Part shown: piece by piece, positions 2,310-34,053 of the stretch
Position numbering within the stretch: position 1 is the first letter of the stretch
Layout of the letters: every line of letters begins with the position of its first letter
DNA from: Candidatus Thalassarchaeaceae archaeon
Lineage (GTDB): Archaea > Thermoplasmatota > Poseidoniia > Poseidoniales > Thalassarchaeaceae
NCBI GenBank assembly: GCA_030749075.1
Contig: JASMKR010000031.1
Span: 70,089-134,088 of the forward strand
Direction of reading: 5' to 3'
DNA length: 64,000 nt
Notes under the pieces: generated by a model
What the model was told of the DNA's origin: nothing
Databases searched by the model: none
The model's input: only the letters and a program-made list of their open reading frames with translations
Position numbers and translations under genes: made by a program

Positions 2310-2800
2310 CAGGACTCACTTGTCCTCATGGTCAGGATGCCATCTTCCCAGATTGCTCCAGTTATGGTCTTGCCCGCGGGTAGTCTGAAGGTCCTGAGCA
2401 TCCCACCGAATCTCTCAGGTGAGATGAGACGTGCTATCTGCAACCCCTCTTCCACGAGAGTCTCGATGACCACTCCCCCAGGGTAGGGGGATGGAAGGGG
2501 TATTGCCATCTCGGAGCCCGACCACTCCCCTCCTAATTCTGCTAGGAAGTCTCCCATGGAAACCGCATCCCTTAGCACGGACTTCGACACATCCGCCACG
2601 TTGGCAACCTCGTCCAGGACCTCTCCATGACGGTCTTGGACCTCGGAGAGGTGTGGCAGTCCCCCAAGGAATATCTCGTGCATCTGCTGAGCGTTTACGT
2701 CTAATCCAATTCCGAGGTTTTCCAAACTGCCTCCGCCTTCCTCATCGTCGCCATCGACCTCGATTTCAATCCTCGACCACCGCATCTTACGACAATGCAT
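2306..2800 (-). CDS. Hypothetical protein (164 aa), co-directional with and 26 nt downstream of xpd
   Basis: Long ORF in a gap not covered by better genes. I recognised no motif. The true start may be an internal Met. It overlaps the stop of the upstream + gene by 4 nt. Confidence 0.3.
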   Translation of the reverse strand: MHCRKMRWSRIEIEVDGDDEEGGGSLENLGIGLDVNAQQMHEIFLGGLPHLSEVQDRHGEVLDEVANVADVSKSVLRDAVSMGDFLAELGGEWSGSEMAIPLPSPYPGGVVIETLVEEGLQIARLISPERFGGMLRTFRLPAGKTITGAIWEDGILTMRTSESC

Positions 2801-2826
2801 CGAACGGACCCGAATGAACCCATTGA

Positions 2827-15319: not shown

Positions 15320-18300
15320 ATGGTGGGTACGATGGAAACTGATAAAGAAGCACCCCAAGTCAACCTCCGGCTCCCCGGGATAGTCTCACCAATCGCCATC
15401 ACCGCGATGCTAACCATGCTCTTCCTAGGACTCTCCCAAATCGAGGGGCGTACAATTGACAACGACTACCTCACTAGCTCCCTGAAACTACCCCTAGCAG
15501 CCCTAGCCTCAGCATGCATTGGAATAATGTCCCCATGGCTGCGACTCAGCCCTACTGTAGGACTCCGTGTTTCAGTCCTGTCATTCGGACTGTTGGCAAT
15601 CGCTTCCATGGCGAACTTACTCGACCCTTTGATATTCGACAACTTGTTCGTCGCCACGTTCTTCCTAGTCGGTTCGGTAATTGGATTCCTAGTGGAGTCA
15701 AAGCGGTTTGAGGAGTCAAGCACCTTCCTTTCCGCCGTTGTGGGCCTGCACCTTGCCACGTCCTACGCTGCGGGGTTGGGGATTATCGACGGCGCTGCGA
15801 CTGCTCAGATGGTAAACGTCGAGAGAGAGGCAATCGGCTCTGCCTTCTTCGCGTTCTGGTTTGCGTCTATTGCACTCGGAATTGTTGTGATGATTGCCCT
15901 GAGGGGCACAATGGAGGAAGCGGGCTCCGGCCCGATGATGTCTGCGCTCCCCACACCGGCACAGAGCCTAGAGGCGACATCCTACGCTGCCCTCATCTTC
16001 GTAGTTCATTTGATCCCACTGGCGTGGATGGGGCAGATAGAGGACATAGAGAAATTCTCTGAGTCCAGCCATCTCGGTGTCGTCTGGGCCATCTTCACGA
16101 CCTTTGCCGTCCTATTGCACTCTTTCTTCCGGGCCGAGGGCTGGCACGTCCTCGGAGCGCTTCTAGCGATCAATTGGATACTGTACACTTTGGGCCATCT
16201 TCACGAGATTGGCAACGAGTTCCCATATCCCCTTGACGAAGGGGACTTGATTGGCTCGTTCTCATGGTTCTTCATGGGCTTCTGGCTAAACTTATTCGGA
16301 ATCATGGCAGCGTCTCGAGGGGTATTCGGAGACATCTCCCCTCGGAGAGAGCCAAGCGGCTTCAGAATCTGGTGGAAATCGAATTCCTACGGAATCTTAG
16401 TCAGCCTAGCCCTGGTAACCGCGCTGGTAGTCAGGACCGCATGGAACGTAATCCCGGCGATGAACGCGTCGGGAACAGGTCTCTGGGACATGACTGGGGG
16501 ATCTGACCCTTGGTACATGAAGAGGGTTGTCGACTACGTGATTGCTGAGAGGAGCCACCTCATCTTCGATCATGACAGGGCGTACCCACTCGGGGGCGTT
16601 AACCCTCGACCACCACTGTTCTCGTGGTCCCTCGCCCTAGGTGGTTTGGGACTCTCCTGGCTACTCGAGATTCCGGCTGAGGAGGCGGTTTGGTGGAGCA
16701 TGTCCGCCCTGCCAGCGATTTACGGTGCCCTCATCGTAATCCCCATCGCTGGAATTGCCACCCGGGTCCACAGCAAAACTGCCGGCATTTTCTCAGCATG
16801 GCTGATCGCACTGATGCCTGGCCACATTAGCAGGTCGACATTTGCCATGGCTGACCACGACTCATTCGCCATGCTTTTCCTAGCCACTGCATTCTACTTC
16901 TGGATTAGGGCACTGTCCGGGATTGAGCACAAGAGGCTGTTCGAATCTACCAGTCCGAACCCACTCTACCTGCTCGCCGGGATGAGGGAGAGTTGGAAGC
17001 AGAACCCCATGGTTATGGCAAACGCCACGATGTCCGGGATTGCTTTCACGTTGATGGCGCTGGGCTGGAAGGGGTTCGTCTACGGGCCGGGAATCCTATT
17101 CCTCGCTTATTCCGTACAGGTTGCCTTCAACATCTTCCGTGGCAGGGACAGCCTCCAGTTCACTGCTGCCGCGCTGCAGATGATGATGACAGCAATTCTT
17201 CTCCCACTGCCGTTCTACGGATGGCCTGGCCTGAATTTGGTCTTCGCGCCCAGTGGCATGCAACCGATGTTCTATATCATCGGTTTCACAATTGCCGTGG
17301 GCTGGGTGGCCAGTTCCTTCAGGGACAAGCCATGGCTACTCGTAATCATCAGCGGCACGATTCTATTCGGCACGATTCTAACTTCCCTCTACCTGCTCCA
17401 AGCCGCCGATTATTACAATGGGTGGGACATACTTTTCACAGGGGGGTTCTACTTCTCAAAGAACAAGATCTTCGGAACTATCGGAGAGGCTCAGGCTCCT
17501 AGTCGAGGGGTATTATTCGCCTCATATGGACCAGTGGTCGCCCTAATAGCAATTGGATGCGGCTTTGTTCTACTATGGAGGGGCAGTCGACGGAACAAGT
17601 CCGAGCTGACTCTACTGGGCTTATGGGTAATCATCGCGACATACATGGCATGGACCGCTGGAAGATTCATCATCAACGCAACTCCGGCTATGGCGGTTGT
17701 GGGCGGTGTCGGAATCTCCATGCTTTGGCGCAGTGCCAATTCATCTGAATTCGCCAAAGAATGGAGGAGGTCCGGCATTGGAACGCCCAGGGCTAGATTC
17801 AGGTCACTATGGCCTGCGACCAAGTCACGCCCCGGCATCCCAGCGATTCTGATCGTCCTCCTTCTTGTGGCCTCGCAGCATTCCACCTACGGAATTGACT
17901 CAGGCATCCCTAGGGGGGAGGAATCCGCCTATGAGGCCGACCTAGCCATCTACGACATCGCACCGGACATTCTGAGGGAGGACTTTTTCAATATCTTCTC
18001 TGTAATGAACAGCAAGGAGTACAATCCCGAAGTCTCAGGCCTTTGGTACATGGGCACGTTCGGCCCTAGCTTCAACAGCCAGGGCTGGAACCATGCCTAC
18101 GACTGGTTGTCCGAGCAGGACTCTGAGCAAGGTTTCAGCGAGCGTCCAGCCTTTGTCTCATGGTGGGACTACGGGTTCCAGGCTCTAGCCTCGGGCCAAC
18201 ATCCCACCGTTGCTGACAACTTCCAGTCGGGAATCCCAAATAGTGGGGGGATGCTCTTGTCGGCTGGACAAGAAGACACCCTGTCCATGTTCATCGTCAC

Positions 18301-21300
18301 TCTGGCACAGGGCGATAGAAAGTCCAACTCCGGCCAACTTGGCGATGATTTCATCGCATCTCTCAACGAGCACATGACCCTTCGACAGGTCGCGGAGTTC
18401 GAGAGCATACTCTCCAACAGCAACAGGGAATTCGTACTCAACAGATCAATGGGCGTCGTAGCGGTGTACAACGACGTCGAACTGCTATACGGAGAGCGTC
18501 TTGGTAGCGATGGCCTCCCTCAACCAGGAAAGGTCTGGATGGTAGTAGAAGATGGGATCCAGGTCTCCGAACCCACCTCGGACGAGTCAGAGGCCATGTC
18601 CCTGTTCAACGTGACCCGCGCCTCATCAACCAAGGTCAAAATCCGTGAGCCAGCGCACTACGACATTGGCGGATATAGGTACACCAAGGACCTGATAGAA
18701 GACTACTACGACATCTCCACTGGCCTTCACAGAAGCAATGCAAAGCTGGGGATGATGCGCGCCTTCCTTGTCACTGCCTTCGACATGGAAACCCTAGTTG
18801 ACATATACCACAGCATCACCTCTATTGAGTACGAGGTCTCCGACTACAACTCCCCACTGGGAAACACGGTGACCCGCAACAACGAGATTCGCTACTTCGC
18901 CGTCGATAACAGGCTCTTTCCGCTAGGTGGCTCTTACTATGAGGACCAATCCTACCATCGCGGACAGACAACAGGAATCTTCCATGCGCCAACTCATTTA
19001 TCGGGGCTAGATTTGGGGACCTACATCTCAACCATGTACCAAACCCAGAGGGGCGATGCCCTTACCGGAGCCAAGGAGATGACCCAAGCCGAATACGAAG
19101 CAGAGTACCGAGGCGACCTGATTAATCAGAGCGCGGGGGTGATCACGGACCCCTCCCAAGTCATCAGGATGACCGATATCGACTACCAGCACCAATCGGA
19201 GTTCTTCGAGACCATGGTCGCTAGGGTATACGTCGGATACGGGTCCTCAACGCTGGGGCTTCCGGGAGATGCCGAGACGCCTGCCGTCTGGTTCAATCCC
19301 CAGCAGACGAATATCATGGGCGCTCCAGGCTCTTCCTTGGAGTACGCCTTCGCTCTCCCCGGAGCAATGATGAATCACTTCGTCATCTCCAACTGGTACG
19401 ACGACAGCGAGTGCGAACTAAATGAGACAGGCGTCAAGATTAGCCAGTTATGCGGTACCATTTACGACTCAAACAGGGTCGTCAAGGTACTCAAGTACTA
19501 CAGCGGCGCAACCGTTGAGGGCACTGTCGAATTGGAAGGCATCGGCCCTGTTCCAAACGCTAGGATCCTGATTGAGAGGGATGCATTCAGCGGCGAGGAG
19601 GAACCCGATGAGAACGGCAGCGTGATTGATAGGGACGAGCGTACGTTTTGGATACCGATTGGCCATACCCAGGCCAACGAAAACGGGGAGTATTCCTTCA
19701 CCGTTCCCGCGGGCAAGATCCGAGTCTCCGCCTTCTCCGGAGAGCCAGACCTTGAGGCTGCTCGTCTTTCGATAACCCCCTCCGTGGCTTCCGAACTCGG
19801 CAACTCGATGTACGAACTGTTCTCCGAGCACAACGAACAGAGGAACGTCAATCCGATTACGGGAATCCTAGGCAACGTCTCGGGCTCGACCTGGCTCTCC
19901 GAGAACATCGTCAACGTCTCTGGGTCTGATGGCCACAGCAATGGCCAATCCCGGATAGAGGCCTCGATCTCAGTCCAGCCCTCCACTGCGGTCGGGGTCT
20001 TGTTGTGGTCTGGCGGCCTTGACTTCGCAGGGGACCCGATCCTGGGCTCTAAGGTGGTGCTGACTCCCTCCTCCGACGAGATTACTATTGAACCATATTC
20101 AGCACCCACCTCAAATGGTACGGTTGAGGGCGAATCTCTGGAGTTCAACGGCATTGGTCAAGCCACCTTCACAGGCGAGGGCACTGTCATCTCAGAGGGC
20201 ATTGTGACCGTCACCGATTTCACGGGGACACACACTCAGACCATCTTGGACAATCACAGTGTTACCGGGGAGGGCCAGTTCTCGGGCAAGGGCACGCTGT
20301 CAGGAACCCTTGTTGACATCACAGCCATTTCCTGCCCCAACGATGAAATTCCTGACGGGGCCGTCGTCTGTTTGCTTGAAAATGGTAAATTCCTTGTGAA
20401 TGGTACCGTAGATGCCTCGGGCAGGTTCACCGCCGACGGAACGGTCCTGTTCTCAAGAACCCTCAACCAGTCTACATTCGTTGGATCGGGTGAGTTCGAG
20501 ACGGACGCTACGCAGTCACTGCCTGCCTATGGGACCATCAATGGTACGGGAATGTTCTCTGGCACTGGGATTTTCAGTGGACCAATGGTCCAACCCGGCT
20601 CCTTCCACTTCTACGATGCCCTCCCGGGCGAGTACATCCCCTCTATCGAATTCGATGATGGCACGACGGTGGAATTGGGGAGCAACTTCCTAATCGGGCT
20701 GAATTCCTTGCAGGCCCCAGTGCAGCTTACTATCTCTGGAGGGGCCATAAAGGGCAACTTGATTGACCAATCTGGTGAACCCCTGTACGGCCAGATCTCC
20801 ATCTTCCCGGCCAACGACACTGCCGAGAACGCCACTACGGAGTGTTCCCAGACCGTATCCTCTCCATGCATGGTCATTCCTGATGACGACGGTGCATTCC
20901 AGATTGGTCCAATCGTCCCGGGGAACTACATAGCCGAGGTCGATCTCGACGATGATGGTTTCCCGGAGGTTTCCCAGGCTTACTCATTCCTCCCCGAGGA
21001 GGATTTCGTAGCCAATTTCCCCTACCCGATCCCAGAAATGTCGGACCTCTTTTTCACTCTCTTGGATGGGGACTCCCCACTCTCCGACCTAGAGGTCCTC
21101 CTGCGACCCGAAAATGGGTCGTTAGCTCCAGTCCTAGCGATATACGACTCGGATTTAGATTCCTACAGGGCCGAGCTCCCCCAAGGCACATGGATACTCA
21201 ACCATACTTTGTCAGAGGACAAGCAGCTCTGGCAACTTATCGAGATTGGCAAGGAGGATGTGTCCGACTCCTTCAGCTTCCAGATCAGCCAGATGGTGAA

Positions 21301-24300
21301 CGGCACAGTGCGATACTCCCAAGACGACAAGCAGGATATCGGAATCATAGTGCCAGCCGCGAGTCTCACTGAGGTAGTTTTCCAATGGGATGGATTCACT
21401 CTTTCTACCACAACGGACGCAGACGGCAACTTCAGCGTGATTCTCCCTGTGGATGCGGTTGTGGATGCCACCGTCGAAATTCTCATGGGCGTCGATGGAT
21501 TCTCTTCCAATGGTACACGCTTCAAAGTGACCCGGGGAATGGACGATGTTTCTCTGAACATTGTTTCGGGTGCCATGGCAACCGGCTCTGTGAGCCTGAA
21601 CCGACTTGGGAACCACTACACTGATGCAATCAAGGGCTGGGAAGCCGTCCATGTCGTCGCCACCAATACTGACGGGTCCACAAACGGGGTTTGGAGGGAT
21701 GAGGCCGATTCCAACGGCTACTTCGAGATGATACTACCTCTGGGTAACTGGACATTCGTTCTTGACCCCGGTCAAATGGGCTCTAGCACGGAGACTAGGG
21801 AAATCAACTCATCCACCGTAATAGATCTAGAGCTTCTAGTCTACCCGGAAGGGAACAGCACGGTCGTAATCGACCTCTTTATCGATCACGATAGAGACAA
21901 CAACGCCTCCAATGGGACGGCGGTGACATATCCTTTCGCCGTCCAGTCGTTGGAGGCCAACGGCGCTGGATACGAAGTGGTCGCAGATGGCGATGAATGG
22001 ATTTCCTCCGGAAGGGCCGAGATTTCTCTGGAACCAGGCAGGTACAGGGTTGTCGTAGAAAGGGCAAATGCCTCGGCAGACGAGCCCTTCGACACTCTCT
22101 ATGACCTCAACGAGGTGTTCCAAGTAGGCATGACTCCATCGGCTGTCGAGAGGTCTGTGGGATTCGAGCCCCTGTGGCTCGTAAACATCACCTTCAGCAA
22201 CGAGAGCGGCAGTCTCCTAGTCGACCACGAGGTCGTTTTCGTCGATAGCGAAAACGGATGGATCCAAACTTTCCTCACCGACGAGGAAGGCAGAGTAGTG
22301 GAATATCTGTCAGAAGGTGACTGGATAGTTATCGTCGACGAGTTCGAGACCAACTCAGACGTTTTCGAAGGACTGCGTCGCCTCATTAGCGTGTCCCAAG
22401 CCAGTGCGGGGGCCCGGTTATATTTCCAGACCTCCGAGCTGGCCGAAGTCTCGATTGCCCTCTTCGAGGATTTTTCTGGTTCCAGTCTCAACCAAATGGA
22501 ACTCAGGTTCACCTCCCAGGAAGGGTTGGGTTCATTCACTGCGCAGACCTCAGGCTTCTTGGAGACCATAAAGATCAGACCGACACCGGGAATGTGGAAC
22601 GTAGAACTTAACCAGTCTGACAACCAAGGAGTGAGATGGGTCATCGATAATTCCTCCCTAGTCGAATCAGGAGTCTCCGTCGGCGTCGAACACATTGTCA
22701 ATCTGACTGTTCGGAGGCTCGTAGAGATGAGCGGCAAGGTCTACTGGGACCTCGATGACGACGGGCTGCCAGGATTCGGAGAGGGTCTAGTCAACGTCTC
22801 GGTGAGCATTACTTCCAACGATACCACCAACCATTCTTTGACCACTGATGATGGTGGCGATTGGGCAATCTACCTCCCAGCCGGCAGTTCATGGAGCGTC
22901 TCGGTAGAAAAGCCAGGATTCGCCAACGAATCAGTTTCCGTCACCCTAGGATCTTCCCGCCATGTCGAGAATATCGTGATTTCCGCTGGGTCAGTCGAGG
23001 TTTCCGGCACCGTCTCGTACATTTCGGATGAATGGATATTTGATGATGATTGGGAAATCGTGCTGATTCCCGCGCATGGGATTTCTAGGGAGAGGGTCGT
23101 TCCAGACAAGGTTGGCAACGAAGTGGATGGGTGGACAGGCGAGTGGGTTGCCTCGGTGGAACCCGGGCGATGGATTGCCTACGTCACGGTCGATTCCCTA
23201 GAGGGGGAGTCCTACCTAATCGCTGTGGATATGCTCGATGCCGATACCGATGGTGGTTCGGTAGATTCAGATCTCTCGATTGGCGGCAAACTCTTCCTTG
23301 ACACCGAGTGGCTGGACTATGACGGTGGACTGCACTCCCTTTCAGAGATCGATGACTACGATCTAGTGATTTCAATCGGAATGGGGATGGAATGGTCCGA
23401 GCAACTGGGTGAGGATGGCACCCTAGAGATGCTACTGCCCACCGGGAGAATCGACGCATCGAGTGACTTCGAGATCGAGCAACGGGCTAGGAATATGTCA
23501 TACTCGGGCGGTCAAGGCGTTACAATGAAGGCCGGCCAGGACAGTCCACTAAAGACACTGAGCTTGGAACGGGTTTCGAAGCAGAACATCGAAATTTCAA
23601 CGATCGGGGAAAGTACCGTCACATTGGGACTGGATCCCGAATGCGAAGTCGAGCTACTACCTCCACCACATGACTGCGAATACACACCCGTCGAATTCTC
23701 ATTGCGCATCGACTACTTAGGACACAGTTCCTTCGACTCATACGACGTTGTGGGCACCGTCCTCGGGACTGATGGCATCCTTTGGCTTGTGCAGTTTGAG
23801 AACGACTCCGGGGGCTGGAACAGCACCGCCTCATTCGAGATGGGAATCGATAACGCTGAGACGATTGACAGCTTAGTTGTCAGGGTGAGTCCAGCAAACA
23901 AGAGCCAGGCCCACCATTTCGGACTTGGACACACTATTCTGATGAAGTTCAAGACTGCCGAGGGTTATTCCACCGAGCACAGTCTGACCGTGAAGGTCCC
24001 CAGATTCTCCGGATTCGAAGTAACCGAGGAATTCGTCGACACAGTCTACTTCAGTTCAGGGGATAAATTTCTGGAAATAGAGATTCCATTTCAAAATCTG
24101 GGGAACGCCGACGACCTACTGACTTTCGACTATCAATCTACTGAACACTGGAACGTGGGCATGCCAACGCTGCAACCAATCTCGCCATTCTCGGAGGGAA
24201 TTACGACTATGTCACTCTCCTACGCAGTCGAGGAGGAACATCTTCCCGAGTACGCGATTGACTTCACTGTGTCCGATGCAGAAAACAACTCCTACGACTA

Positions 24301-24826
24301 CCATATCACGCTCCTAGGGGATTCGCCAGTCCTCTCCATTCACGGAAGCACAATCCAACTCCAAGGTGGTGGAAACCCCGTCGTGGGCCAGAAGTTAACT
24401 TACGTGGTAGAGGTGGTAAATGAGGCGCATGTCAGCGCAGAGGGCGTCACTTTACGGGCAACGCTGTGTAACGACATCAAATGCGAATCAACTGCCGGGG
24501 TGAACTCGACTGCAGTAAGCGACATCCCGGAACAGGGAAGCTCGTTGTTCTATGTCCCCATGGATTACACTAACTTCACCACCCCTGCCAAGTACTTCAT
24601 TATCTTCGAGATTATCCCTCCCGGATTCAACGAGGGGGACGTTCTGGTGGCTTGCGTCGCAGAGCAGGCGGAAGGGGCATCGGCGTGTGTTATGGAGGCA
24701 CAACTCTGGCCTGAGTCCGAGGAAGAAGTGCTATCTTGGATTACCTATCTATTGCTGCTAATGCTCGCATTGGCACTATGGTCACTGACCCGTCGGACCG
24801 GAAGAAGGCCGGGAGCCCCCTTCTGA
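15320..24826 (+). CDS. aglB: Giant (3,168-aa) membrane protein: N-terminal ~330-aa polytopic domain + AglB/STT3 oligosaccharyltransferase core + ~1,900-aa extracellular beta-sandwich extension + C-terminal TM anchor
   Basis: It is an uninterrupted 9,507-nt ORF. FDHDRAYP is the DxD motif of the STT3 first external loop (nt 16565-16579). SWWDYGFQ is the WWDYG catalytic motif (nt 18161-18175). There are multiple TM helices before WWDYG. After ~aa 1,300 there are repeated Ig/CarboxypepD_reg-like modules rich in N-x-S/T. The C-terminus is WITYLLLLMLALALWSLTRRTGRR. Confidence 0.8.
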   Translation: MVGTMETDKEAPQVNLRLPGIVSPIAITAMLTMLFLGLSQIEGRTIDNDYLTSSLKLPLAALASACIGIMSPWLRLSPTVGLRVSVLSFGLLAIASMANLLDPLIFDNLFVATFFLVGSVIGFLVESKRFEESSTFLSAVVGLHLATSYAAGLGIIDGAATAQMVNVEREAIGSAFFAFWFASIALGIVVMIALRGTMEEAGSGPMMSALPTPAQSLEATSYAALIFVVHLIPLAWMGQIEDIEKFSESSHLGVVWAIFTTFAVLLHSFFRAEGWHVLGALLAINWILYTLGHLHEIGNEFPYPLDEGDLIGSFSWFFMGFWLNLFGIMAASRGVFGDISPRREPSGFRIWWKSNSYGILVSLALVTALVVRTAWNVIPAMNASGTGLWDMTGGSDPWYMKRVVDYVIAERSHLIFDHDRAYPLGGVNPRPPLFSWSLALGGLGLSWLLEIPAEEAVWWSMSALPAIYGALIVIPIAGIATRVHSKTAGIFSAWLIALMPGHISRSTFAMADHDSFAMLFLATAFYFWIRALSGIEHKRLFESTSPNPLYLLAGMRESWKQNPMVMANATMSGIAFTLMALGWKGFVYGPGILFLAYSVQVAFNIFRGRDSLQFTAAALQMMMTAILLPLPFYGWPGLNLVFAPSGMQPMFYIIGFTIAVGWVASSFRDKPWLLVIISGTILFGTILTSLYLLQAADYYNGWDILFTGGFYFSKNKIFGTIGEAQAPSRGVLFASYGPVVALIAIGCGFVLLWRGSRRNKSELTLLGLWVIIATYMAWTAGRFIINATPAMAVVGGVGISMLWRSANSSEFAKEWRRSGIGTPRARFRSLWPATKSRPGIPAILIVLLLVASQHSTYGIDSGIPRGEESAYEADLAIYDIAPDILREDFFNIFSVMNSKEYNPEVSGLWYMGTFGPSFNSQGWNHAYDWLSEQDSEQGFSERPAFVSWWDYGFQALASGQHPTVADNFQSGIPNSGGMLLSAGQEDTLSMFIVTLAQGDRKSNSGQLGDDFIASLNEHMTLRQVAEFESILSNSNREFVLNRSMGVVAVYNDVELLYGERLGSDGLPQPGKVWMVVEDGIQVSEPTSDESEAMSLFNVTRASSTKVKIREPAHYDIGGYRYTKDLIEDYYDISTGLHRSNAKLGMMRAFLVTAFDMETLVDIYHSITSIEYEVSDYNSPLGNTVTRNNEIRYFAVDNRLFPLGGSYYEDQSYHRGQTTGIFHAPTHLSGLDLGTYISTMYQTQRGDALTGAKEMTQAEYEAEYRGDLINQSAGVITDPSQVIRMTDIDYQHQSEFFETMVARVYVGYGSSTLGLPGDAETPAVWFNPQQTNIMGAPGSSLEYAFALPGAMMNHFVISNWYDDSECELNETGVKISQLCGTIYDSNRVVKVLKYYSGATVEGTVELEGIGPVPNARILIERDAFSGEEEPDENGSVIDRDERTFWIPIGHTQANENGEYSFTVPAGKIRVSAFSGEPDLEAARLSITPSVASELGNSMYELFSEHNEQRNVNPITGILGNVSGSTWLSENIVNVSGSDGHSNGQSRIEASISVQPSTAVGVLLWSGGLDFAGDPILGSKVVLTPSSDEITIEPYSAPTSNGTVEGESLEFNGIGQATFTGEGTVISEGIVTVTDFTGTHTQTILDNHSVTGEGQFSGKGTLSGTLVDITAISCPNDEIPDGAVVCLLENGKFLVNGTVDASGRFTADGTVLFSRTLNQSTFVGSGEFETDATQSLPAYGTINGTGMFSGTGIFSGPMVQPGSFHFYDALPGEYIPSIEFDDGTTVELGSNFLIGLNSLQAPVQLTISGGAIKGNLIDQSGEPLYGQISIFPANDTAENATTECSQTVSSPCMVIPDDDGAFQIGPIVPGNYIAEVDLDDDGFPEVSQAYSFLPEEDFVANFPYPIPEMSDLFFTLLDGDSPLSDLEVLLRPENGSLAPVLAIYDSDLDSYRAELPQGTWILNHTLSEDKQLWQLIEIGKEDVSDSFSFQISQMVNGTVRYSQDDKQDIGIIVPAASLTEVVFQWDGFTLSTTTDADGNFSVILPVDAVVDATVEILMGVDGFSSNGTRFKVTRGMDDVSLNIVSGAMATGSVSLNRLGNHYTDAIKGWEAVHVVATNTDGSTNGVWRDEADSNGYFEMILPLGNWTFVLDPGQMGSSTETREINSSTVIDLELLVYPEGNSTVVIDLFIDHDRDNNASNGTAVTYPFAVQSLEANGAGYEVVADGDEWISSGRAEISLEPGRYRVVVERANASADEPFDTLYDLNEVFQVGMTPSAVERSVGFEPLWLVNITFSNESGSLLVDHEVVFVDSENGWIQTFLTDEEGRVVEYLSEGDWIVIVDEFETNSDVFEGLRRLISVSQASAGARLYFQTSELAEVSIALFEDFSGSSLNQMELRFTSQEGLGSFTAQTSGFLETIKIRPTPGMWNVELNQSDNQGVRWVIDNSSLVESGVSVGVEHIVNLTVRRLVEMSGKVYWDLDDDGLPGFGEGLVNVSVSITSNDTTNHSLTTDDGGDWAIYLPAGSSWSVSVEKPGFANESVSVTLGSSRHVENIVISAGSVEVSGTVSYISDEWIFDDDWEIVLIPAHGISRERVVPDKVGNEVDGWTGEWVASVEPGRWIAYVTVDSLEGESYLIAVDMLDADTDGGSVDSDLSIGGKLFLDTEWLDYDGGLHSLSEIDDYDLVISIGMGMEWSEQLGEDGTLEMLLPTGRIDASSDFEIEQRARNMSYSGGQGVTMKAGQDSPLKTLSLERVSKQNIEISTIGESTVTLGLDPECEVELLPPPHDCEYTPVEFSLRIDYLGHSSFDSYDVVGTVLGTDGILWLVQFENDSGGWNSTASFEMGIDNAETIDSLVVRVSPANKSQAHHFGLGHTILMKFKTAEGYSTEHSLTVKVPRFSGFEVTEEFVDTVYFSSGDKFLEIEIPFQNLGNADDLLTFDYQSTEHWNVGMPTLQPISPFSEGITTMSLSYAVEEEHLPEYAIDFTVSDAENNSYDYHITLLGDSPVLSIHGSTIQLQGGGNPVVGQKLTYVVEVVNEAHVSAEGVTLRATLCNDIKCESTAGVNSTAVSDIPEQGSSLFYVPMDYTNFTTPAKYFIIFEIIPPGFNEGDVLVACVAEQAEGASACVMEAQLWPESEEEVLSWITYLLLLMLALALWSLTRRTGRRPGAPF

Positions 24827-24867: not shown

Positions 24868-26106
24868 GTGATGCAGGACATAGAACACCTCGAACTGATG
24901 CCCGAACCAGATGAGCCAAGCCTGCTTACAACGGTCGACAGCGATGCCCCCGGATATCCCGGTAAGTCCTATGGGGTCTCGGATGAGGAGGCTAGGGAGA
25001 TGCGCTGGCCCGCTGGCCCGATCATGGAGGTGCTATGGCCGTGGGGGGCGATTGTGTTTTCCTTGACAATCGTTTTCCTATTGCTGTCTTGGAACTTGAT
25101 ATCTCCCTTCTTAGGACACGTTCTACCCGATTCTGAGTGGGCATACGAGGACACCGGAATCAGGGAACTGCAGAGTTCAGGAAGATTGGGGAGCGGAGTA
25201 AGCGTGTGCATTGTGGATACGGGAATCGACATATCGCACCCTGACCTCTCCAATGTCCACCTAGCAGGTTTCAGGGACTTCTACGGCGACGATCATGATA
25301 GTGTCAGGGATATCGGGAACGAGGGTCACGGTACGCTAATGGCCGGGCTCCTCGTTGCAAACGGCACCTTTGTGGGCGCCGCTCCCGAGGTCTCCCTCTC
25401 AATCGCAATCGCTCTGGGGCCTACCGGAAAGTCGACCGATGAGCGAATGGTTTCCCAGGCAATCCGTTGGTGCCGAATCTCTCAGCAGGCCGATATCATC
25501 TCACTAAGCCTAGGCAGCGAGCCTGGTTCGGGGATGGGCTTCGAATCCGATACCGTTGGGGCCGTTAAGGAAGCCCTAGAGGAAGGGGTCTTCGTCGTCG
25601 CTGCTGCGGGGAATACGAACTCGATCACTGGTGACTCTGACGTTTCGACCCCTGCAAGCATCGAGGGTGTCATCGCGGTTGGGGCACATAGTAGGAACGA
25701 GGCTGTCTGGAAGGATAGCGCTATTGGAGCTGCAACCGACCCATATTCCGGCGAGAACCGAACGTTTCCAAATCAGAAGCCCGAGATCTCTGCCCCCGGC
25801 GTTCTCCTATGGTCTTGCGTTTCCAGCGAAAACGATCCTCCATACGCTTACTCGACTGGAACCAGCGACTCCACGGTCTTGGTCACCGGTGCTCTAGCAC
25901 TCATTTTGGAGGAACACCGACAGATTATCGCCGGGCAGAACGACAGGATTGACCCCGAAGAGATAGCCCTGGTCAAGGTCGCTTTGGCCAAGTCAGCCCA
26001 AAAGACCCCCTCGCAACAGGGTTCTCATGACCCTAAGATTGGTTATGGCCTACTAGATGCTAAGGCATGGTCCGACCAAGTGGCACTGGAGTTCAATTCT
26101 ATTTGA
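24868..26106 (+). CDS. Subtilisin-like serine protease (peptidase S8) with N-terminal TM/signal anchor
   Basis: The Asp motif is VCIVDTGID, the His motif is HGTLMAGL and the Ser region is YSTGTSDSTVLVTGALALI. An N-terminal hydrophobic helix WGAIVFSLTIVFLLL is present. Confidence 0.75.
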   Translation: MMQDIEHLELMPEPDEPSLLTTVDSDAPGYPGKSYGVSDEEAREMRWPAGPIMEVLWPWGAIVFSLTIVFLLLSWNLISPFLGHVLPDSEWAYEDTGIRELQSSGRLGSGVSVCIVDTGIDISHPDLSNVHLAGFRDFYGDDHDSVRDIGNEGHGTLMAGLLVANGTFVGAAPEVSLSIAIALGPTGKSTDERMVSQAIRWCRISQQADIISLSLGSEPGSGMGFESDTVGAVKEALEEGVFVVAAAGNTNSITGDSDVSTPASIEGVIAVGAHSRNEAVWKDSAIGAATDPYSGENRTFPNQKPEISAPGVLLWSCVSSENDPPYAYSTGTSDSTVLVTGALALILEEHRQIIAGQNDRIDPEEIALVKVALAKSAQKTPSQQGSHDPKIGYGLLDAKAWSDQVALEFNSI

Positions 26107-26148
26107 GACCACAAGGGCTCGATACTACCCTACGGTTAAATCGCTCTG

Positions 26149-29100
26149 ATGGGGCCCGGAGCCATGGCGCGCAGTGGAAAGGCCGGTTCCATTGCCCTCG
26201 CTGCTCTCTTCCTGACCAGCGTCCTACTAGCACTAGTGCTACCGGCCAATCCTGTAAGAGCGTCCAACGAGACCACCTCCGGTACCATCACAGGTACGGA
26301 GACTTGGGCTGGAACGCACGTCCTAACTGGAGATGTGACCGTCGCCCCAGGTGCTAAGCTTATCATCCAAGCGGGAGCCACGATTACCTTTCCCAATGGG
26401 ACGTATCTCGACGTGCGTGGTAGCCTATGCGCGGGGGTAGCCTCTTGCGGCAGCAGCAGCAATGCCGACCCTTCGATGAAGATCACCCTCAGGTGGGAAG
26501 AGCCCCTCAACGCCAGTGCCATTGGGGAGTGCTATGGCATGTCCGAAGGCAATCAGGAAATCTGGATTGACGACCCCTCGTGCAACGAGGGGTTGCTGAT
26601 GAGAAGCAGCATTGACCTATCGGAGACGGGAATGAGGTACGTCACTTTCGACGGTCCTTGGGGAGTCCCATACTATGTCACTGCGGTCAGCGAGTTCCGT
26701 TACGCGGCCCTAGTCCTAGATGGTGCTAGCCCGACCCTGACCAACCTCGAGTTCATTGACGTCAACTCTAGCAGCGTCCTAACCACGGACCTCGCTCAGC
26801 CCACTTTCAACGGTGGCACATTCGTAGTAGGCAATGATGCCAGCAGAAGCATTGTGGGCCCCGCCCTGCAGATTTACTCCTCGGGGTCCTCAATCACTCC
26901 CTTCACCCTCAGCGATATCACACTCTCCAGTACCAACAACGGCTGTGGGAACCGGGACCGCGGCCGCGCCGCCATATGGGCGGAGAAGTCATTCATAGAG
27001 ATCAACAATGCCGAAATCACCGATGGCGACTTCGGCTTCAGCCTCAGGACCTCTGCGGGCAGCGTCACCAACTCCACTGCAAGCGTCAACTGCAATGGCA
27101 TCGACATCAACGGCAAGAAGTCCGTAGGCTCTGTCTACTATGACTTCGAAATTTCGAACAACGTCATCACGACCGTCCAAGGCAGTGGAATCACGCTTTA
27201 CAGCGGTGCTCTGGCCACGTTGACCAACAACGACATCGAAGGCGCCTCTCAAGCCTCCGGCATCACCGTTTATTCCAGCACTGCGGCCCTCCACAACAAT
27301 GAGATTGGCCCGATTGGGGGGTACAACGGACTCTGGCTGCGCGGCTCCTTCGACGTTGAAGCGGAGAATAACACCATCTTCGATACCGGAAGGGAGCCAA
27401 TCGTAGCGGGAAGGTACACCCGGTCTGAGTACTCGGCATCCCGTATCTTCCTAGCTAACAACACCATCTCAACGAAGGGGACCGGCGCGTGCAGCAGCAA
27501 CACATACTGGGCCGGCGACTTCACATGCCCGGCCATTCATGCCTTTGTTACCGGTGTGACGATGTACGACAACGTCGTCAACGTCGATTCCGAAGGCACC
27601 GCCGATGGCATCAGAGCCATCGGCTCGCTGTTGGACATCCAGAGGAACGTCTTCAACGTCCCCAAGTCAGGCGCCATTGTCAAGAACTTCGACAGCGGTT
27701 ACTCCGAAGCCGATCAATACGGCACCCTCGGCTTCTTCTCACAGAACACGTGGAACGGTGTCGAAACGACGTACAACGTCACCAAGAGCTCAATCACTGT
27801 TCAGTCCGAGTACATTCCAAGCCCCCCTTCCGGAGAGTTCCCCGTTCTCCTTGATTGGCCAGACCAGGAGGCATGGCCCGCAAACGGCTTCCAAGGCTCC
27901 ATCATACCCACTCCGGTCAAGAACTGCGCAAACTGCGACAACATGACCCCGCACAACTTCCCCCTCGCGATAAACATGGACAACAACTCCACCGTTTTCA
28001 CCTTCGCCAACCTGTCAAATCTGGACCTCTCCAAGGTCAAGATAGAAACCCAACCCACACATTTTGCGGTTCAGGTCAGCAGGGCTGAGTTGGTCAGGTT
28101 CCAGACGCTGATTAAGGGTGAGAGGGTCGGCGATGCCTTGCTCATTGTCGAGGACGCCTTAGGGAACGACCTCTACTCCATCAAAACCCATTCCGATGGA
28201 TTCACCCCGTGGATTTCTCTTCCCTCCAATTTCCACCTTGACTTCAGGGGGCTTGGTGGTGGTGATAATCCCGATGGCTTCGCGGATGACGAGTACGAGG
28301 ACTCTTGCTCCGATGGTATCGACAACGATGGCGATCTTACCACCGATACAAACGACAACGATTGCAACTATTCTGCAGGTACAAGGGAGATGTCCCTCTA
28401 CAGGTACACCGCCTATAGGTTCGGTTTCGGTTACTACCGCGGAGAGTTCACTCTCGCAGACAGTTCCTACCAAGAGACCGTCAGCCTCGAAAACCTCGCT
28501 CCGACGGTTACTGTGACCCAAGACAATGATCACTCCTATCGCAGGATTGTCAACATCACAGGCAGTGCTCACGATGGCCAACTGGCGAACAGTTACGCTA
28601 CCGACCAATTGGCTCAGTGGGACCAGCGTGGTTACGTCCACTCTATCCAGATCAAGGATCCGTTTACTAACAGCTGGGAGGATGCCGGTAATGCAATAGA
28701 CACCGGTGGAGCCGGGGAGGGGCATGTCACTAGGTTCAACCGGCCTTTCAGCTCCTGGTACTATGCCCTCGACATGAGTAGCATTGCTGGCGAGGGCGAT
28801 TATACCTTCGAGTTTCGTGCCTTCGATGGAATCGATTACAGCCCAACAGTCTCCAAGACCTTCAAGCTCAACACACAACCTCCTACGGTTTTCGTAACCT
28901 CGCCAAGCTCGTATTCATCGCATGACGGGGGAACGGTGAATTTCATCGGAACAGCTCAGGATCCATATGGCTGCCCCTCGGAGTGTAACAAGGACGTCGG
29001 ACTGATATATTTCCAGATCGAGGGCCCGAACTTCCAAGTAACGACTCCAGTCCAATCCAACGATGATGGCAGTTGGGAGTGGGAATGGGACTTCAGCGGC

Positions 29101-30486
29101 CAACCCCGGGATCTCGCCACCTTCACATTTACCGTTTGGGCATCCGACTCCGATTTCTGCGATGGCATCATTGACGAATGCCTGCCGGTGGTTCTGACAC
29201 TGAGCATAGACAACTCCAACAGCCAACCAACCATCAGCGTCAACCAGCCACAGGCGGGCACTCGAATCTCAGTTTCCGAGAGTACGCTGCTTAGCGGTGT
29301 GGCGAGGGACTTCGACGGCGAAGTAACAAGGGTGGATGTGGAGGTCAAGGATGTCTCTAACGACTACATTACCGTACACCTCGCCTCCACTCACGATTTC
29401 ACGTCCGAGGGTGAATGGGAAATCGAGTGGGACACCACCCAACTTCGCCATGATGCCGACTACCTGATCAGGCTCAGATCCTATGATGGAATGGACTTCA
29501 GCAGCTGGGTCGAGGTGGGGATTATCGCCGATAACCCACCCGATGCCGGTAACAACCAGCCTCAGTTCAATCCCAGCGAATGGGTAAGCGAGATCACACT
29601 TTTCTGTGATACTGAGTCAAGCTCTGCCAACAGGTGCACCACGATCGAGATGGACCTGATGGAATTCTTCAGCGACGCTGACGGGGACATACAGTTCATC
29701 TCAGTGTTCAACGACACCTCTGATCCCGCCGACGACAACTATGCCATCGTGATAAACGTCGCAGGTGATGGTATGGCATACTACAACCCAGCGGATATGT
29801 TCTTCTACGATCCAGACATAAGCTCTTGGACACTAAACGACGTAATTTTCATTGCTACTGATTCGCATAACTCTAAGGTCAACTCACTTCCTATTTCCTT
29901 CACAGTCATACCCATTCAGTTTTCGATAGATTCCCCCGAGGAGGCTTGGGTCGAGTTGGATGGGATTTCGGTGTATTCTGGCGTCGGCCTTCCGGGGAAG
30001 CAGGTCACCGTGCTAATCGGCGGGATTACCGTCAACAATACCATAGTGGCCGATAATGGAACTTGGGTACTCGGCATACCGGCATCAAGAATCCAGGGTG
30101 ACTCCGCAACCCCCCAGTTTAGCTATAGTGGCGAATTTACCCCCGGAGATCCAATTCAACTAGGGCAACCAGAAGAAGAGGGGTCGAACTGGAACAGGAT
30201 TGCTCTGGTAGGTGTGCTAGTATTCGCACTGCTGGGTGCCCTAGCCTACTTTATATTCGAAATCGAGGATGATGATGATGAGTACGGGAAGTCACCTGTG
30301 GCCCCATTAGTAGAGCCCGATGAGCCCGACGACCCCTATGCTTGGGCCAAGGTCGACGCCCCTATTCCTCCTACAACAGTTGATCGGGGTCAGCAATTGG
30401 AGCGGCACGAGGAACACCCAGGATGGTTGTGGGACCCCATCAGGGAGGAATGGGCCCCAGATCCTGAATACCATGACTCCGAATAA
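26149..30486 (+). CDS. Large (1,445-aa) surface protein with right-handed parallel beta-helix repeats, Ca-binding-like D-rich segment and C-terminal TM anchor plus acidic cytoplasmic tail
   Basis: Signal peptide is MARSGKAGSIALAALFLTSVLLALVLPANPVRA. Repeated motifs N..I....GSGITLYS / GASQASGITVYSS are pectate-lyase-like PbH1 repeats. DGIDNDGDLTTDTNDNDCNYS is present. The C-terminus is IALVGVLVFALLGALAYFIF followed by EIEDDDDEY. Confidence 0.7.
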   Translation: MGPGAMARSGKAGSIALAALFLTSVLLALVLPANPVRASNETTSGTITGTETWAGTHVLTGDVTVAPGAKLIIQAGATITFPNGTYLDVRGSLCAGVASCGSSSNADPSMKITLRWEEPLNASAIGECYGMSEGNQEIWIDDPSCNEGLLMRSSIDLSETGMRYVTFDGPWGVPYYVTAVSEFRYAALVLDGASPTLTNLEFIDVNSSSVLTTDLAQPTFNGGTFVVGNDASRSIVGPALQIYSSGSSITPFTLSDITLSSTNNGCGNRDRGRAAIWAEKSFIEINNAEITDGDFGFSLRTSAGSVTNSTASVNCNGIDINGKKSVGSVYYDFEISNNVITTVQGSGITLYSGALATLTNNDIEGASQASGITVYSSTAALHNNEIGPIGGYNGLWLRGSFDVEAENNTIFDTGREPIVAGRYTRSEYSASRIFLANNTISTKGTGACSSNTYWAGDFTCPAIHAFVTGVTMYDNVVNVDSEGTADGIRAIGSLLDIQRNVFNVPKSGAIVKNFDSGYSEADQYGTLGFFSQNTWNGVETTYNVTKSSITVQSEYIPSPPSGEFPVLLDWPDQEAWPANGFQGSIIPTPVKNCANCDNMTPHNFPLAINMDNNSTVFTFANLSNLDLSKVKIETQPTHFAVQVSRAELVRFQTLIKGERVGDALLIVEDALGNDLYSIKTHSDGFTPWISLPSNFHLDFRGLGGGDNPDGFADDEYEDSCSDGIDNDGDLTTDTNDNDCNYSAGTREMSLYRYTAYRFGFGYYRGEFTLADSSYQETVSLENLAPTVTVTQDNDHSYRRIVNITGSAHDGQLANSYATDQLAQWDQRGYVHSIQIKDPFTNSWEDAGNAIDTGGAGEGHVTRFNRPFSSWYYALDMSSIAGEGDYTFEFRAFDGIDYSPTVSKTFKLNTQPPTVFVTSPSSYSSHDGGTVNFIGTAQDPYGCPSECNKDVGLIYFQIEGPNFQVTTPVQSNDDGSWEWEWDFSGQPRDLATFTFTVWASDSDFCDGIIDECLPVVLTLSIDNSNSQPTISVNQPQAGTRISVSESTLLSGVARDFDGEVTRVDVEVKDVSNDYITVHLASTHDFTSEGEWEIEWDTTQLRHDADYLIRLRSYDGMDFSSWVEVGIIADNPPDAGNNQPQFNPSEWVSEITLFCDTESSSANRCTTIEMDLMEFFSDADGDIQFISVFNDTSDPADDNYAIVINVAGDGMAYYNPADMFFYDPDISSWTLNDVIFIATDSHNSKVNSLPISFTVIPIQFSIDSPEEAWVELDGISVYSGVGLPGKQVTVLIGGITVNNTIVADNGTWVLGIPASRIQGDSATPQFSYSGEFTPGDPIQLGQPEEEGSNWNRIALVGVLVFALLGALAYFIFEIEDDDDEYGKSPVAPLVEPDEPDDPYAWAKVDAPIPPTTVDRGQQLERHEEHPGWLWDPIREEWAPDPEYHDSE

Positions 30487-30537
30487 TCCGCCCGACTCCT
30501 ACCAACATTATTGAGTGGAGATTGGGGCTGAGGAACC

Positions 30538-33069: not shown

Positions 33070-33876
33070 TCAGGCCGCCACGAATCGCCGTGGTTCCGCT
33101 TGCCCAGTCCAATGGCTGAACTCCGGCCCACGCTGTTTTGAGACTGAAATGTCGCCTGAGAATGTATCGCCAATGGCCATCAGAACCTCGCTCTCTGCCA
33201 AATGGGGGGCATTGTTATTCTCAGAAAGGTGACAGAGGACGATGCTATCCAACTCAGGGTGACACACGTTTCCCAATAGTTCGGCAGTTTGGGAATTAGA
33301 AAGGTGCCCACCTCGCCCCGAAATCCTTCGTTTGAGAGAATCTGGATATGGCCCTTGGATGAGCTTGGAGTGGTCGTAATTCGCTTCGATTGAGATGTGG
33401 TTGCAGCCACGAAGATGCTTCGCCAATTCAGCAGTGGACTCTCCGAGGTCCGTCACTATAGCAGCCCGTCCTCCATTTCCATCGCTGCCGATTACGGCGA
33501 CGTTTTCGGCATCGTCATGAGGAACTGGAACTGTTATCAGACTGAGTCCGGTGGCACACTCTACCCTCTCAAGATTGCCGAACGTCCTACAGTCCTCTAG
33601 AGGGTGCCAACCCAATTTCATTGCAGTTTCTAGATTACAGTGGAGTTTGGCGTCCCATGCCCTTGAGGCTTTGAGGGCTGAGTTGGAGTGGTCCCTGTGA
33701 TGGTGCGTCACGAGAATGGCGTCAATTGAATCCGGTGCGACTCCAATCAATGACAGCCTCTTCTCAGTTTGCCTGAGACTAAATCCACAATCTATCAAGG
33801 CCCTCGAGTCCCCGGAGCTTAGTAGGGTTGCGTTGCCTTTACTGCCCGAACCCAGATGAGTAATCTCGATGCTCAT
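33070..33876 (-). CDS. MBL-fold metallo-hydrolase (metallo-beta-lactamase superfamily)
   Basis: LVTHHHRDH is the HxHxDH motif. The N-terminal HLGSGSKGNATLL is typical of the MBL fold. Downstream His/Asp ligands are present. It is convergent with and abuts the STAND gene. Confidence 0.7.
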   Translation of the reverse strand: MSIEITHLGSGSKGNATLLSSGDSRALIDCGFSLRQTEKRLSLIGVAPDSIDAILVTHHHRDHSNSALKASRAWDAKLHCNLETAMKLGWHPLEDCRTFGNLERVECATGLSLITVPVPHDDAENVAVIGSDGNGGRAAIVTDLGESTAELAKHLRGCNHISIEANYDHSKLIQGPYPDSLKRRISGRGGHLSNSQTAELLGNVCHPELDSIVLCHLSENNNAPHLAESEVLMAIGDTFSGDISVSKQRGPEFSHWTGQAEPRRFVAA

Positions 33877-34053
33877 AATGTCATTCTCTCATCCACAGCA
33901 CCCTTTGAACCAATCCATTATCTTGCCTCAATCACACGCTATTCCAAGACCATGGTGGTTAGCCGCCACCCCATTCTAGCCATCTATGTCCGAACGGCGC
34001 TCCATCACCATGATAAATCACTCAAGTAGGGAAAATGGTACCGAGTGGGTAAC

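Follow-up and report, generated by a model that had tools for sequence, protein, structure and literature searches.

A giant AglB/STT3 protein of Poseidoniales with added membrane helices, a sequon-rich beta-module region and a C-terminal anchor

We analysed a 64,000-nucleotide stretch of DNA from a Candidatus Thalassarchaeaceae archaeon (contig JASMKR010000031.1; hereafter, the window), which carries a 9.5-kb gene for a 3,168-residue homologue of AglB/STT3, here called giant AglB. The STT3/AglB catalytic subunit of oligosaccharyltransferase (OST) is a universal, well-studied enzyme; the prokaryotic OSTs that have been characterised consist of one compact subunit, and those of eukaryotes have accessory subunits as separate chains. 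Our analysis supports an architecture in which AglB/STT3 lies on one polypeptide with N-terminal transmembrane (TM) helices, a large sequon-rich region of beta-modules and a C-terminal anchor. Giant AglB is unusual, yet it is no one-off. Judging from its sequence and from structural models, it is fairly probable that giant AglB, extended at both ends, works as an oligosaccharyltransferase and forms part of a surface stalk that is glycosylated and anchored twice.

The giant AglB gene, its orthologues and its size classes

The gene occupies a single open reading frame (ORF) on the forward strand, and a first-pass annotation of this DNA had correctly described the frame as uninterrupted. Public gene calls of identical sequence use an alternative start, M5 (nt 15332), four codons downstream, giving a protein of 3,164 amino acids (aa). 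The features on which the following sections rely, including those predicted with AlphaFold2 (AF2) and its per-residue confidence, the predicted local distance difference test (pLDDT), are listed here.

15320..24826, + strand: giant AglB ORF; ATG start, 3,168 aa plus stop, single open frame
15320..16354, + strand: N-terminal extension, aa 1-345, with 10 predicted TM helices (AF2, pLDDT 75-90)
16355..17899, + strand: STT3/AglB transmembrane core, aa 346-860, ~13 helices, the best conserved part (PF02516, TIGR04154, alignment with 3WAJ/5GMY, Foldseek)
16505..16507, + strand: D396 in GGSDPWY, the predicted catalytic Asp of external loop 1 (aligned with GGNDPWY of Archaeoglobus fulgidus AglB, AfAglB)
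16565..16588, + strand: FDHDRAYP (D417, D419), conserved element of external loop 1 (aligned with AfAglB FDPFTYYP)
16853..16861, + strand: D512-H513-D514, canonical DXD metal-binding motif, in ADHDSF (aligned with DHH of AfAglB NDHHIW)
17477..17488, + strand: T720-I721-G722-E723, TIXE motif of external loop 5 (pattern and position)
17900..19465, + strand: extracellular catalytic (AglB C-terminal) domain with lineage-specific insertions, aa 861-1382 (matches to the 3VGP/3VU0 C-terminal domains)
18161..18175, + strand: WWDYG, aa 948-952 (aligned with AfAglB WWDYG)
From 18890, + strand: RYFAVDNRLFP...TGIFHAP block, aa 1191-1225 (conserved, lineage-specific)
19466..24709, + strand: ectodomain of beta-sandwich modules, aa 1383-3130, ~1,750 residues (AF2, Foldseek, Pfam, sequons)
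20117..20584, + strand: Gly-rich GxGxFxGxG region, aa ~1600-1755 (six very long beta-strands modelled)
20942..20959, + strand: DLDDDG, a DxDxDG-type motif, aa 1875-1880 (kept in 11 of 12 orthologues)
24728..24784, + strand: C-terminal TM anchor, aa 3137-3155 (hydropathy)
24785..24823, + strand: predicted cytoplasmic tail LTRRTGRRPGAPF, aa 3156-3168 (basic, after the last TM helix)

Three elements that the first-pass annotation had placed around the core, namely extra TM helices ahead of it, a sequon-rich beta-sandwich region behind it and a C-terminal TM anchor, were all recovered in our analysis.

Among 5.8 billion proteins searched, 448 homologues came up, from JGI, ENA, NCBI, Tara and Logan assemblies; the best 120 are 2,565-3,338 aa long, and most of them span the query from end to end at 47-100% identity. 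A relative is encoded in 464 GTDB species genomes, and the closest GTDB match (Poseidoniales, Thalassarchaeaceae, Marine Group IIb or MGIIb) is 89% identical across the first 1,200 aa. Among the best 80 GTDB loci, the ORF is bounded by stops on both sides in 53, and 49 of these 53 ORFs measure 3,145-3,320 aa, single-cell genomes and a 1.6-Mb long-read contig being included. Equally long orthologues, which the first-pass annotation had left to be sought, are the rule. Its statement that known AglBs measure 600-1,000 aa holds for the characterised enzymes, but public data contain hundreds of orthologues of 3,000 aa or more. Chance can be excluded because a frame of 3,168 codons is unexpected at random and hundreds of independent assemblies keep it open.

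The gene codes for protein along all 9.5 kb and is under purifying selection throughout. Computed against orthologues of 88% and 81% identity, the ratio of nonsynonymous to synonymous substitution rates (dN/dS) amounts to 0.035-0.06 for the STT3 membrane core, 0.10 for the proximal ectodomain and 0.11-0.13 for the external catalytic domain; for the N-terminal extension, as well as for the distal ectodomain and the anchor, it is 0.15-0.22.

An exhaustive search with aa 1-1200 revealed a second tier of relatives, dozens of proteins of 2,000-2,800 aa from Thermoplasmata and Thermoplasmatota metagenome-assembled genomes (MAGs), which match from query residue ~350 onward. These second-tier proteins, mostly annotated 'carboxypeptidase regulatory-like domain-containing protein', have the catalytic motifs, a first CarboxypepD_reg module directly after the AglB domain, a C-terminal TM anchor and a basic tail, and have neither the N-terminal extension nor the APF end of giant AglB. 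Most seemingly short relatives are contig-truncated fragments of giants of the second-tier type. A third class comprises complete proteins of 1,100-1,400 aa, on contigs of up to 252 kb, which have one to a few modules and lack the C-terminal anchor. In every size class the AglB domain is followed by the first CarboxypepD_reg module, and the three classes (1,100-1,400, 2,000-2,800 and ~3,170 aa) place the window protein at the extreme end of a graded series. When a search for a giant AglB in a cultured organism was seeded with a Methanomethylophilaceae fragment, only MAG proteins were returned, and it was this search that brought the intermediate class of 1,100-1,400 aa to light.

Catalytic core, N-terminal bundle and ectodomain

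By sequence and fold, residues ~346-1382 are a genuine AglB/STT3. The search with STT3 hidden Markov models (HMMs) that the first-pass annotation had proposed yields matches to PF02516 (Pfam STT3) over aa 395-793, scoring 45.2 bits where the gathering score is 24.5, and to NCBIfam TIGR04154 (archaeo_STT3) over aa 360-982, with an E-value of 2e-46 and covering profile positions 3-571 of 831. Because the TIGR04154 score of 158.8 bits lies far under the curated cut-off of 450, giant AglB is a homologue of that archaeosortase A system-associated subfamily and not a member of it. The best sequence matches in the PDB are AfAglB (3WAJ/3WAK/5GMY/7E9S), followed by yeast and human STT3. Foldseek searches with the model of aa 1-1200 agree, the top 19 matches all being AglB, STT3 or PglB at probabilities of 0.99-1.0, in the order AglB, STT3A/B, yeast Stt3 and PglB. 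The extracellular catalytic domain aligns with P0309, an AglB of normal size, and its aa ~990-1170 are modelled at pLDDT 75-90.

The catalytic residues can be assigned by alignment to D396 and D512-H513-D514, because GGSDPWY aligns with GGNDPWY and ADHDSF with NDHHIW. The first-pass annotation had instead taken FDHDRAYP for the catalytic DxD. This element is present and conserved and starts at nt 16565 as described there, but it ends at 16588 rather than 16579, and its alignment partner is FDPFTYYP; the canonical DXD lies at D512-H513-D514. The position given there for WWDYG was exact. In an alignment of 20 orthologues reaching down to 47% identity, D396, D417/D419, D512-H513-D514, T720-E723 and W948-G952 are invariant. 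The TIXE motif (SVSE in eukaryotes) belongs to a flexible loop that joins helices 671-695 and 727-757, and no 50-aa block of the protein is better conserved than the one containing it (identity 0.90); the motif was assigned by pattern and position, as the HMM alignment with 3WAJ ended before it. The catalytic motifs are retained in Thermoplasmatota relatives of only 28-38% identity, TIXE reading TIAEAQ in the distant ones. The RYFAVDNRLFP...TGIFHAP block, common to the second-tier proteins and P0309, occupies the region in which the DK or MI motif of the Ser/Thr pocket is expected. From these sequence features, giant AglB is most likely a catalytically competent N-oligosaccharyltransferase. 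An oligosaccharyltransferase gene of a MAG of the Thalassarchaeaceae (MGIIb) genus O1 is more abundant in metatranscriptomes where the genus is active (PMC9723583); that gene, which the study only names, may be the orthologue of the window ORF.

The N-terminal extension is confined to the tier of ~3,150-3,230 aa, according to the exhaustive representative search. K/R-rich loops alternate with acidic loops across its 10 helices in a positive-inside pattern, which fits an N-in/C-in topology feeding STT3 TM1 from the cytoplasm. No ATG, GTG or TTG occurs between aa 330 and 380, so translation of STT3 TM1 requires the extension. Conservation is lower here than anywhere else in the protein, with identity of 0.3-0.46 over aa 1-250, and the invariant charged or polar residues of the extension include E131, E132, R169, R195, E273, W275, N285, W286, E296 and D338. 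The invariant charges within the membrane suggest that the bundle binds a lipid, an ion or a partner protein. Pfam and PDB profile searches with the extension gave no match, and beyond the STT3 matches Foldseek found nothing at a probability above 0.3 except ALG12, another GT-C enzyme. A profile of the extension searched against the 5.8 billion proteins gave only 8 matches, every one a fragment of the giant-AglB gene; two of them sit on longer contigs and are calls of this locus that frameshifts have split. A duplicated STT3 TM module and an internal duplication were each considered as its origin and rejected, at hhalign probabilities of 0.2% and 0.5%.

Behind the catalytic domain, the AF2 model of aa 1181-2380 is all-beta from aa ~1550 to 2380 at pLDDT 80-93, and extrapolation from the modelled part gives a rough estimate of ~17 modules for the ectodomain. 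Pfam recognises a CarboxypepD_reg domain at aa 2487-2546 as well as DUF11. Foldseek matched the ectodomain model to the Bacillus anthracis TIE protein, Gram-positive pilins, SdrD, a Ca2+-stabilised RTX adhesin and Sulfolobus SlaB, at E-values of 1e-11 to 1e-5 and probabilities of ~1.0, the SlaB stalk (8QOX_B) being matched at fold level only (E 2e-5). No enzyme fold and no eukaryotic OST accessory subunit appeared among the Foldseek matches to this model. HMMs built from three modules cross-detect one other module only, pairing aa 2001-2086 with 2470-2562. The modules differ from one another but hold their positions among orthologues, so a recent repeat expansion is excluded; a tandem-repeat adhesin of the RTX, Bap or SdrD type was ruled out, as the modules are not near-identical.

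Sequons are strongly enriched outside the membrane core. Over aa 860-3130 we counted 41, compared with 17.5 in shuffled sequences (2.3-fold, z 6.2), and none of 2000 shuffles reached 41; aa 1-340 contain none. Protein-wide, 13 sequons are kept in at least 9 of 12 orthologues, and 11 of these lie within the ectodomain, at N1532, N1645, N1741, N2143, N2195, N2198, N2294, N2431, N2492, N2828 and N2860. No such excess is seen in three further large secreted proteins encoded in the window (1,445, 1,908 and 1,598 aa). The modelled strands of the Gly-rich region are 14-25 residues long, with a conserved Cys pair between them, the neighbouring beta modules being shorter-stranded, and this region ranks among the best conserved stretches of the ectodomain. 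The DLDDDG motif is a possible Ca2+ site, the fold matches including the Ca2+-dependent SdrD B and RTX adhesin modules.

The C-terminal TM anchor is present in all orthologues and in the second-tier giants, but not in the relatives of 1,100-1,400 aa. The R-R-x-x-A-P-F C-terminus that follows it is essentially invariant in the giant AglBs of Poseidoniales, and in GTDB 49 of 53 orthologues have APF as their last three residues. Apart from giant AglB, no ORF of at least 100 aa in the window or in two further loci (L001 and L003) ends in APF. A sorting signal common to several proteins was therefore rejected, since no other checked ORF carries APF; as its sequence stands, the tail may be a docking or sorting signal specific to giant AglB. 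A surface protein of the PGF-CTERM type, processed by an archaeosortase, was likewise rejected, as no PGF precedes the last TM helix and the chain ends with that helix followed by LTRRTGRRPGAPF.

Proposed mechanism and alternative explanations

In the most likely mechanism, the N-terminus of giant AglB would be cytoplasmic, and the ten lineage-specific TM helices would lead into the ~13-helix STT3 core. In STT3 enzymes the C-terminal domain faces outward; with this orientation, the analysis supports a topology in which aa ~861-3136, comprising the WWDYG domain and the ~2,200 residues after it, lie outside the cell with both ends of the region held by the membrane, and the last TM helix would return the final 13 residues, with their RRxxAPF end, to the cytoplasm. 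By homology and invariance, D396, D512/D514 and E723 would hold the divalent cation and the acceptor Asn, and WWDYG would bind the Ser/Thr at position +2. Proteins appearing on the outer side of the membrane would then receive, at their N-x-S/T sites, the glycan held by a dolichol-phosphate carrier. The fold, the sequon excess and the double anchoring suggest that the ectodomain forms a stalk or arch of non-identical beta-sandwich modules, probably stiffened by Ca2+. It would carry a heavy load of N-glycans, added most simply by the active site of the same chain or of adjacent copies, and would be a major substrate of its own enzyme. The glycosylated arch could thereby join the glycoprotein coat of the cell and place a fixed scaffold or platform over the enzyme. 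An envelope scaffold had been proposed by the first-pass annotation, and we draw such a role from fold and topology.

Several points weigh against this interpretation. No DK (DxxKxxxM/I) or MI (MxxIxxxI/V/W) motif of the Ser/Thr pocket was recognised in giant AglB, the region being cut or poorly modelled. The AF2 models, which cover aa 1-1200 and aa 1181-2380 of the 3,168 residues, are only moderate overall (pLDDT 66 and 69), and the catalytic loops and aa 1181-1545 are poorly modelled. In addition, we infer the scaffold or coat role, self-glycosylation and Ca2+ binding from models and sequence.

Several other explanations were weighed. The chain might be a polyprotein precursor, whose ectodomain is glycosylated in cis and then cut from AglB, for example by the downstream S8 subtilase, to give a TM-anchored surface glycoprotein and an AglB of conventional size. 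An S8 subtilase with an N-terminal TM helix does lie directly 3' of the gene in every Poseidoniales locus examined, and the ectodomain has a C-terminal anchor of its own, which would suit such processing. However, the second-tier giants keep the same plan of AglB, beta-modules and anchor without an adjacent subtilase, the first CarboxypepD_reg module follows the AglB domain across size classes, no cleavage motif was identified, and the junction (aa ~1290-1480) is well conserved (identity 0.6-0.77, dN/dS ~0.10), unlike a disposable linker. We thus consider a precursor unlikely. A further proposal, an addition to the favoured surface-stalk enzyme rather than a replacement for it, makes the 10-TM bundle a transporter-like module. 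Flipping of the dolichol-phosphate-linked glycan, or recycling of its carrier, would then be coupled to transfer. In its widest form, put forward for marine Thermoplasmatota, the oligosaccharyltransferase would be an all-in-one envelope machine and no stand-alone enzyme: the bundle, specific to Poseidoniales, would handle the lipid-linked glycan, the STT3 core would transfer it, and the doubly anchored, self-glycosylated arch would be a principal structural element of the coat. A single protein of 3,168 residues would in this way physically link the provision of glycan, its transfer and the building of the envelope. The ten helices are confidently modelled, invariant charges (E131/E132, R169, R195, E273, E296 and D338) lie in or at the edges of these helices, and the bundle is under purifying selection (dN/dS ~0.2) and obligatorily co-translated with STT3 TM1. 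These observations would fit such a module, but its lack of any known family by Pfam, PDB profile or Foldseek (ALG12 aside), its low conservation and the fact that the second-tier giants and all other AglBs work without it make the proposal improbable.

The remaining two explanations question the enzyme or the gene itself. If the STT3 part were a dead pseudo-enzyme that only anchors a surface protein, with another AglB performing glycosylation, the low archaeo_STT3 score and the unrecognised DK/MI motif would be easily understood. Nevertheless, neither the family nor its distant relatives show a change in any of the residues that bind metal, acceptor and sequon, and the catalytic core is the most constrained part of the protein, with its identity peak at the TIXE loop; loss of activity is thus very improbable. 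An assembly or annotation artefact, that is, a chimeric contig, a missed stop or a frameshift, could be suspected from the minority of public loci with split gene calls and from the shorter ORFs in 4 of the 53 stop-bounded cases. The split or short versions, however, sit on error-rich or masked contigs in which housekeeping neighbours are split too, and independent assemblies, single-cell genomes and long-read contigs give the same ORF of 3,145-3,320 aa with the same termini. Together with purifying selection over the full length, this effectively refutes an artefact.

Genomic context, significance and comparison with known systems

The giant AglB locus belongs to the ordinary archaeal core chromosome, since its neighbours include CDP-archaeol synthase (CarS), PurD, glutamate dehydrogenase, ribosomal protein S15, GluRS, PheRS-beta, GAPDH and DnaJ. 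In Poseidoniales, across loci with 47-88% AglB identity, the gene order CarS, PurD, giant AglB, S8 subtilase, a beta-helix protein of ~1,420 aa, an AAA/TPR protein, a metallo-beta-lactamase-fold protein and a secreted protein of ~1,900 aa is kept. The gene directly downstream in the window is as follows.

24868..26106, + strand: membrane-anchored S8 subtilase, 412 aa (Pfam; same position in orthologous loci)

The subtilase was rejected as a universal partner, as it is not adjacent to the second-tier giants. The downstream string of genes (24868-39771), whose order recurs at 47-63% AglB identity, also contains a beta-helix/Big_7 protein of 1,445 aa with an N-terminal signal and a TM helix at aa 1351-1369. 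Next come a STAND-like protein of 843 aa with AAA_16 and TPR, a metallo-beta-lactamase-fold protein encoded on the minus strand and a secreted TSP3-repeat protein of 1,908 aa. Second-tier relatives of 2,449 and 2,775 aa from Thermoplasmata MAGs (L088, 1-7762; L089, 1-3810) adjoin enormous surface proteins, namely an 8,356-aa ORF followed by a 1,077-aa PKD/Ig protein at one locus and a 4,565-aa transglutaminase-core/CarboxypepD_reg/PKD protein at the other.

Elsewhere in the window, a second large surface protease is encoded at 58088-62884, a secreted 1,598-aa protein combining an S8 subtilase with CARDB and NPCBM_assoc modules and a C-terminal TM helix. A 725-aa ORF at 132-2309, with Big_3_5 just under and DUF4129 under the Pfam cut-off and one TM helix at aa 578-596, is sequon-rich (12 observed, 4.4 expected), unlike three of the other large secreted proteins encoded in the window. 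Two more ORFs have unusual or partly recognised domains: a 329-aa ORF at 40700-41689 is an unusual fusion of Peptidase_C15 (pyroglutamyl peptidase, aa 5-171) with a NUDIX hydrolase (aa 199-317), and a 980-aa ORF on the minus strand at 4874-7816 joins a weak, sub-cut-off N-terminus of response-regulator receiver type to PPDK_N (PEP/pyruvate-binding, ATP-grasp).

Public annotation of the relatives is uneven. Other names in use are 'STT3 domain-containing protein', 'peptide transporter' and 'glycosyltransferase family 39 protein', and inconsistent, partly wrong annotations were seen for P0141, P0148, P0166, P0173 and P0298. Because of such names, annotation-based surveys of archaeal N-glycosylation may miss or misread these relatives. 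At one locus (L004), on a long-read 'pilon' contig, nearly every gene is split, including CarS, PurD and giant AglB; the pattern resembles residual indel errors and yields spurious stand-alone 'domains' in protein databases.

Poseidoniales are uncultured, and to our knowledge no wall or S-layer has been described for them. Our full-text literature searches found no paper that links AglB, or a 'giant protein', with Marine Group II, and the Poseidoniales papers that name an oligosaccharyltransferase or N-glycosylation say nothing of its size or architecture; the literature searched says nothing of the Poseidoniales cell envelope. A 2024 review of archaeal N-glycosylation and a paper on Poseidoniales viruses describe no fused or giant AglB, and the comparative genomics of Rinke et al. 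(PMC6461757), in which Poseidoniales are described as the most abundant planktonic archaea of ocean surface waters, makes no mention of glycosylation. The architecture thus appears to be undescribed, though the sequences are abundant in public databases. It is unusual for an STT3/AglB protein to reach three to four times the normal size and to include a novel membrane domain and an extracellular stalk of its own, in a form fixed across an order and graded across a phylum, even if interest is tempered by the nature of the additions, a novel helical bundle plus common beta-sandwich modules. Giant AglB offers metaproteomes and cryo-tomograms a specific target, a very large, conserved and, on our reading, heavily glycosylated surface structure, and the size series from ~1,100 through 2,800 to 3,170 aa is a natural experiment on what accessory domains may do for an oligosaccharyltransferase.

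Compared with known systems, giant AglB shares with A. fulgidus AglB-L the GT-C/STT3 TM core, the Asp of external loop 1, the DXD/DXH motif and the WWDYG domain, and presumably catalyses the same reaction, although identity over the fold alignment is only ~16-18%. The solved AglB-L chain, in contrast, has 875 residues and is without the 10-TM extension, the beta-module stalk and the C-terminal TM anchor. The closest relatives outside Poseidoniales are the Thermoplasmatota AglB-CarboxypepD_reg fusions (28-38% core identity), which differ in having no 10-TM bundle, no APF C-terminus and no adjacent subtilase. In eukaryotic OST (6S7O, 6S7T, 6EZN, 8AGC), the catalytic subunit is homologous, whereas giant AglB carries everything on one polypeptide. 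The catalytic STT3A/B of eukaryotes is accompanied outside the cytoplasm by large accessory domains on single TM helices. As a working analogy, the giant AglB ectodomain resembles this accessory set in architecture only, homology being unsupported. NOMO, a eukaryotic ER membrane protein, has a broadly similar plan, with a string of prealbumin-like modules (Ig-like, CarboxypepD_reg type), a single C-terminal TM helix and a short cytoplasmic tail; weak or faint precomputed Pfam NOMO1-like matches are found on second-tier relatives, but none on the window protein. Finally, the stalk proteins BcpA, SpaA/SpaC, RrgB, SdrD B, TIE, the Marinomonas RTX adhesin and SlaB have the same beads-on-a-string CnaB/prealbumin-like modules, and a possible Ca2+ motif is common to giant AglB and stalk-module proteins. 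Pilin, MSCRAMM, RTX and SlaB stalks, however, are anchored at one end and carry no fused glycosylation enzyme, whereas the modules of giant AglB are divergent rather than tandem repeats and are joined to AglB/STT3 in a single chain.

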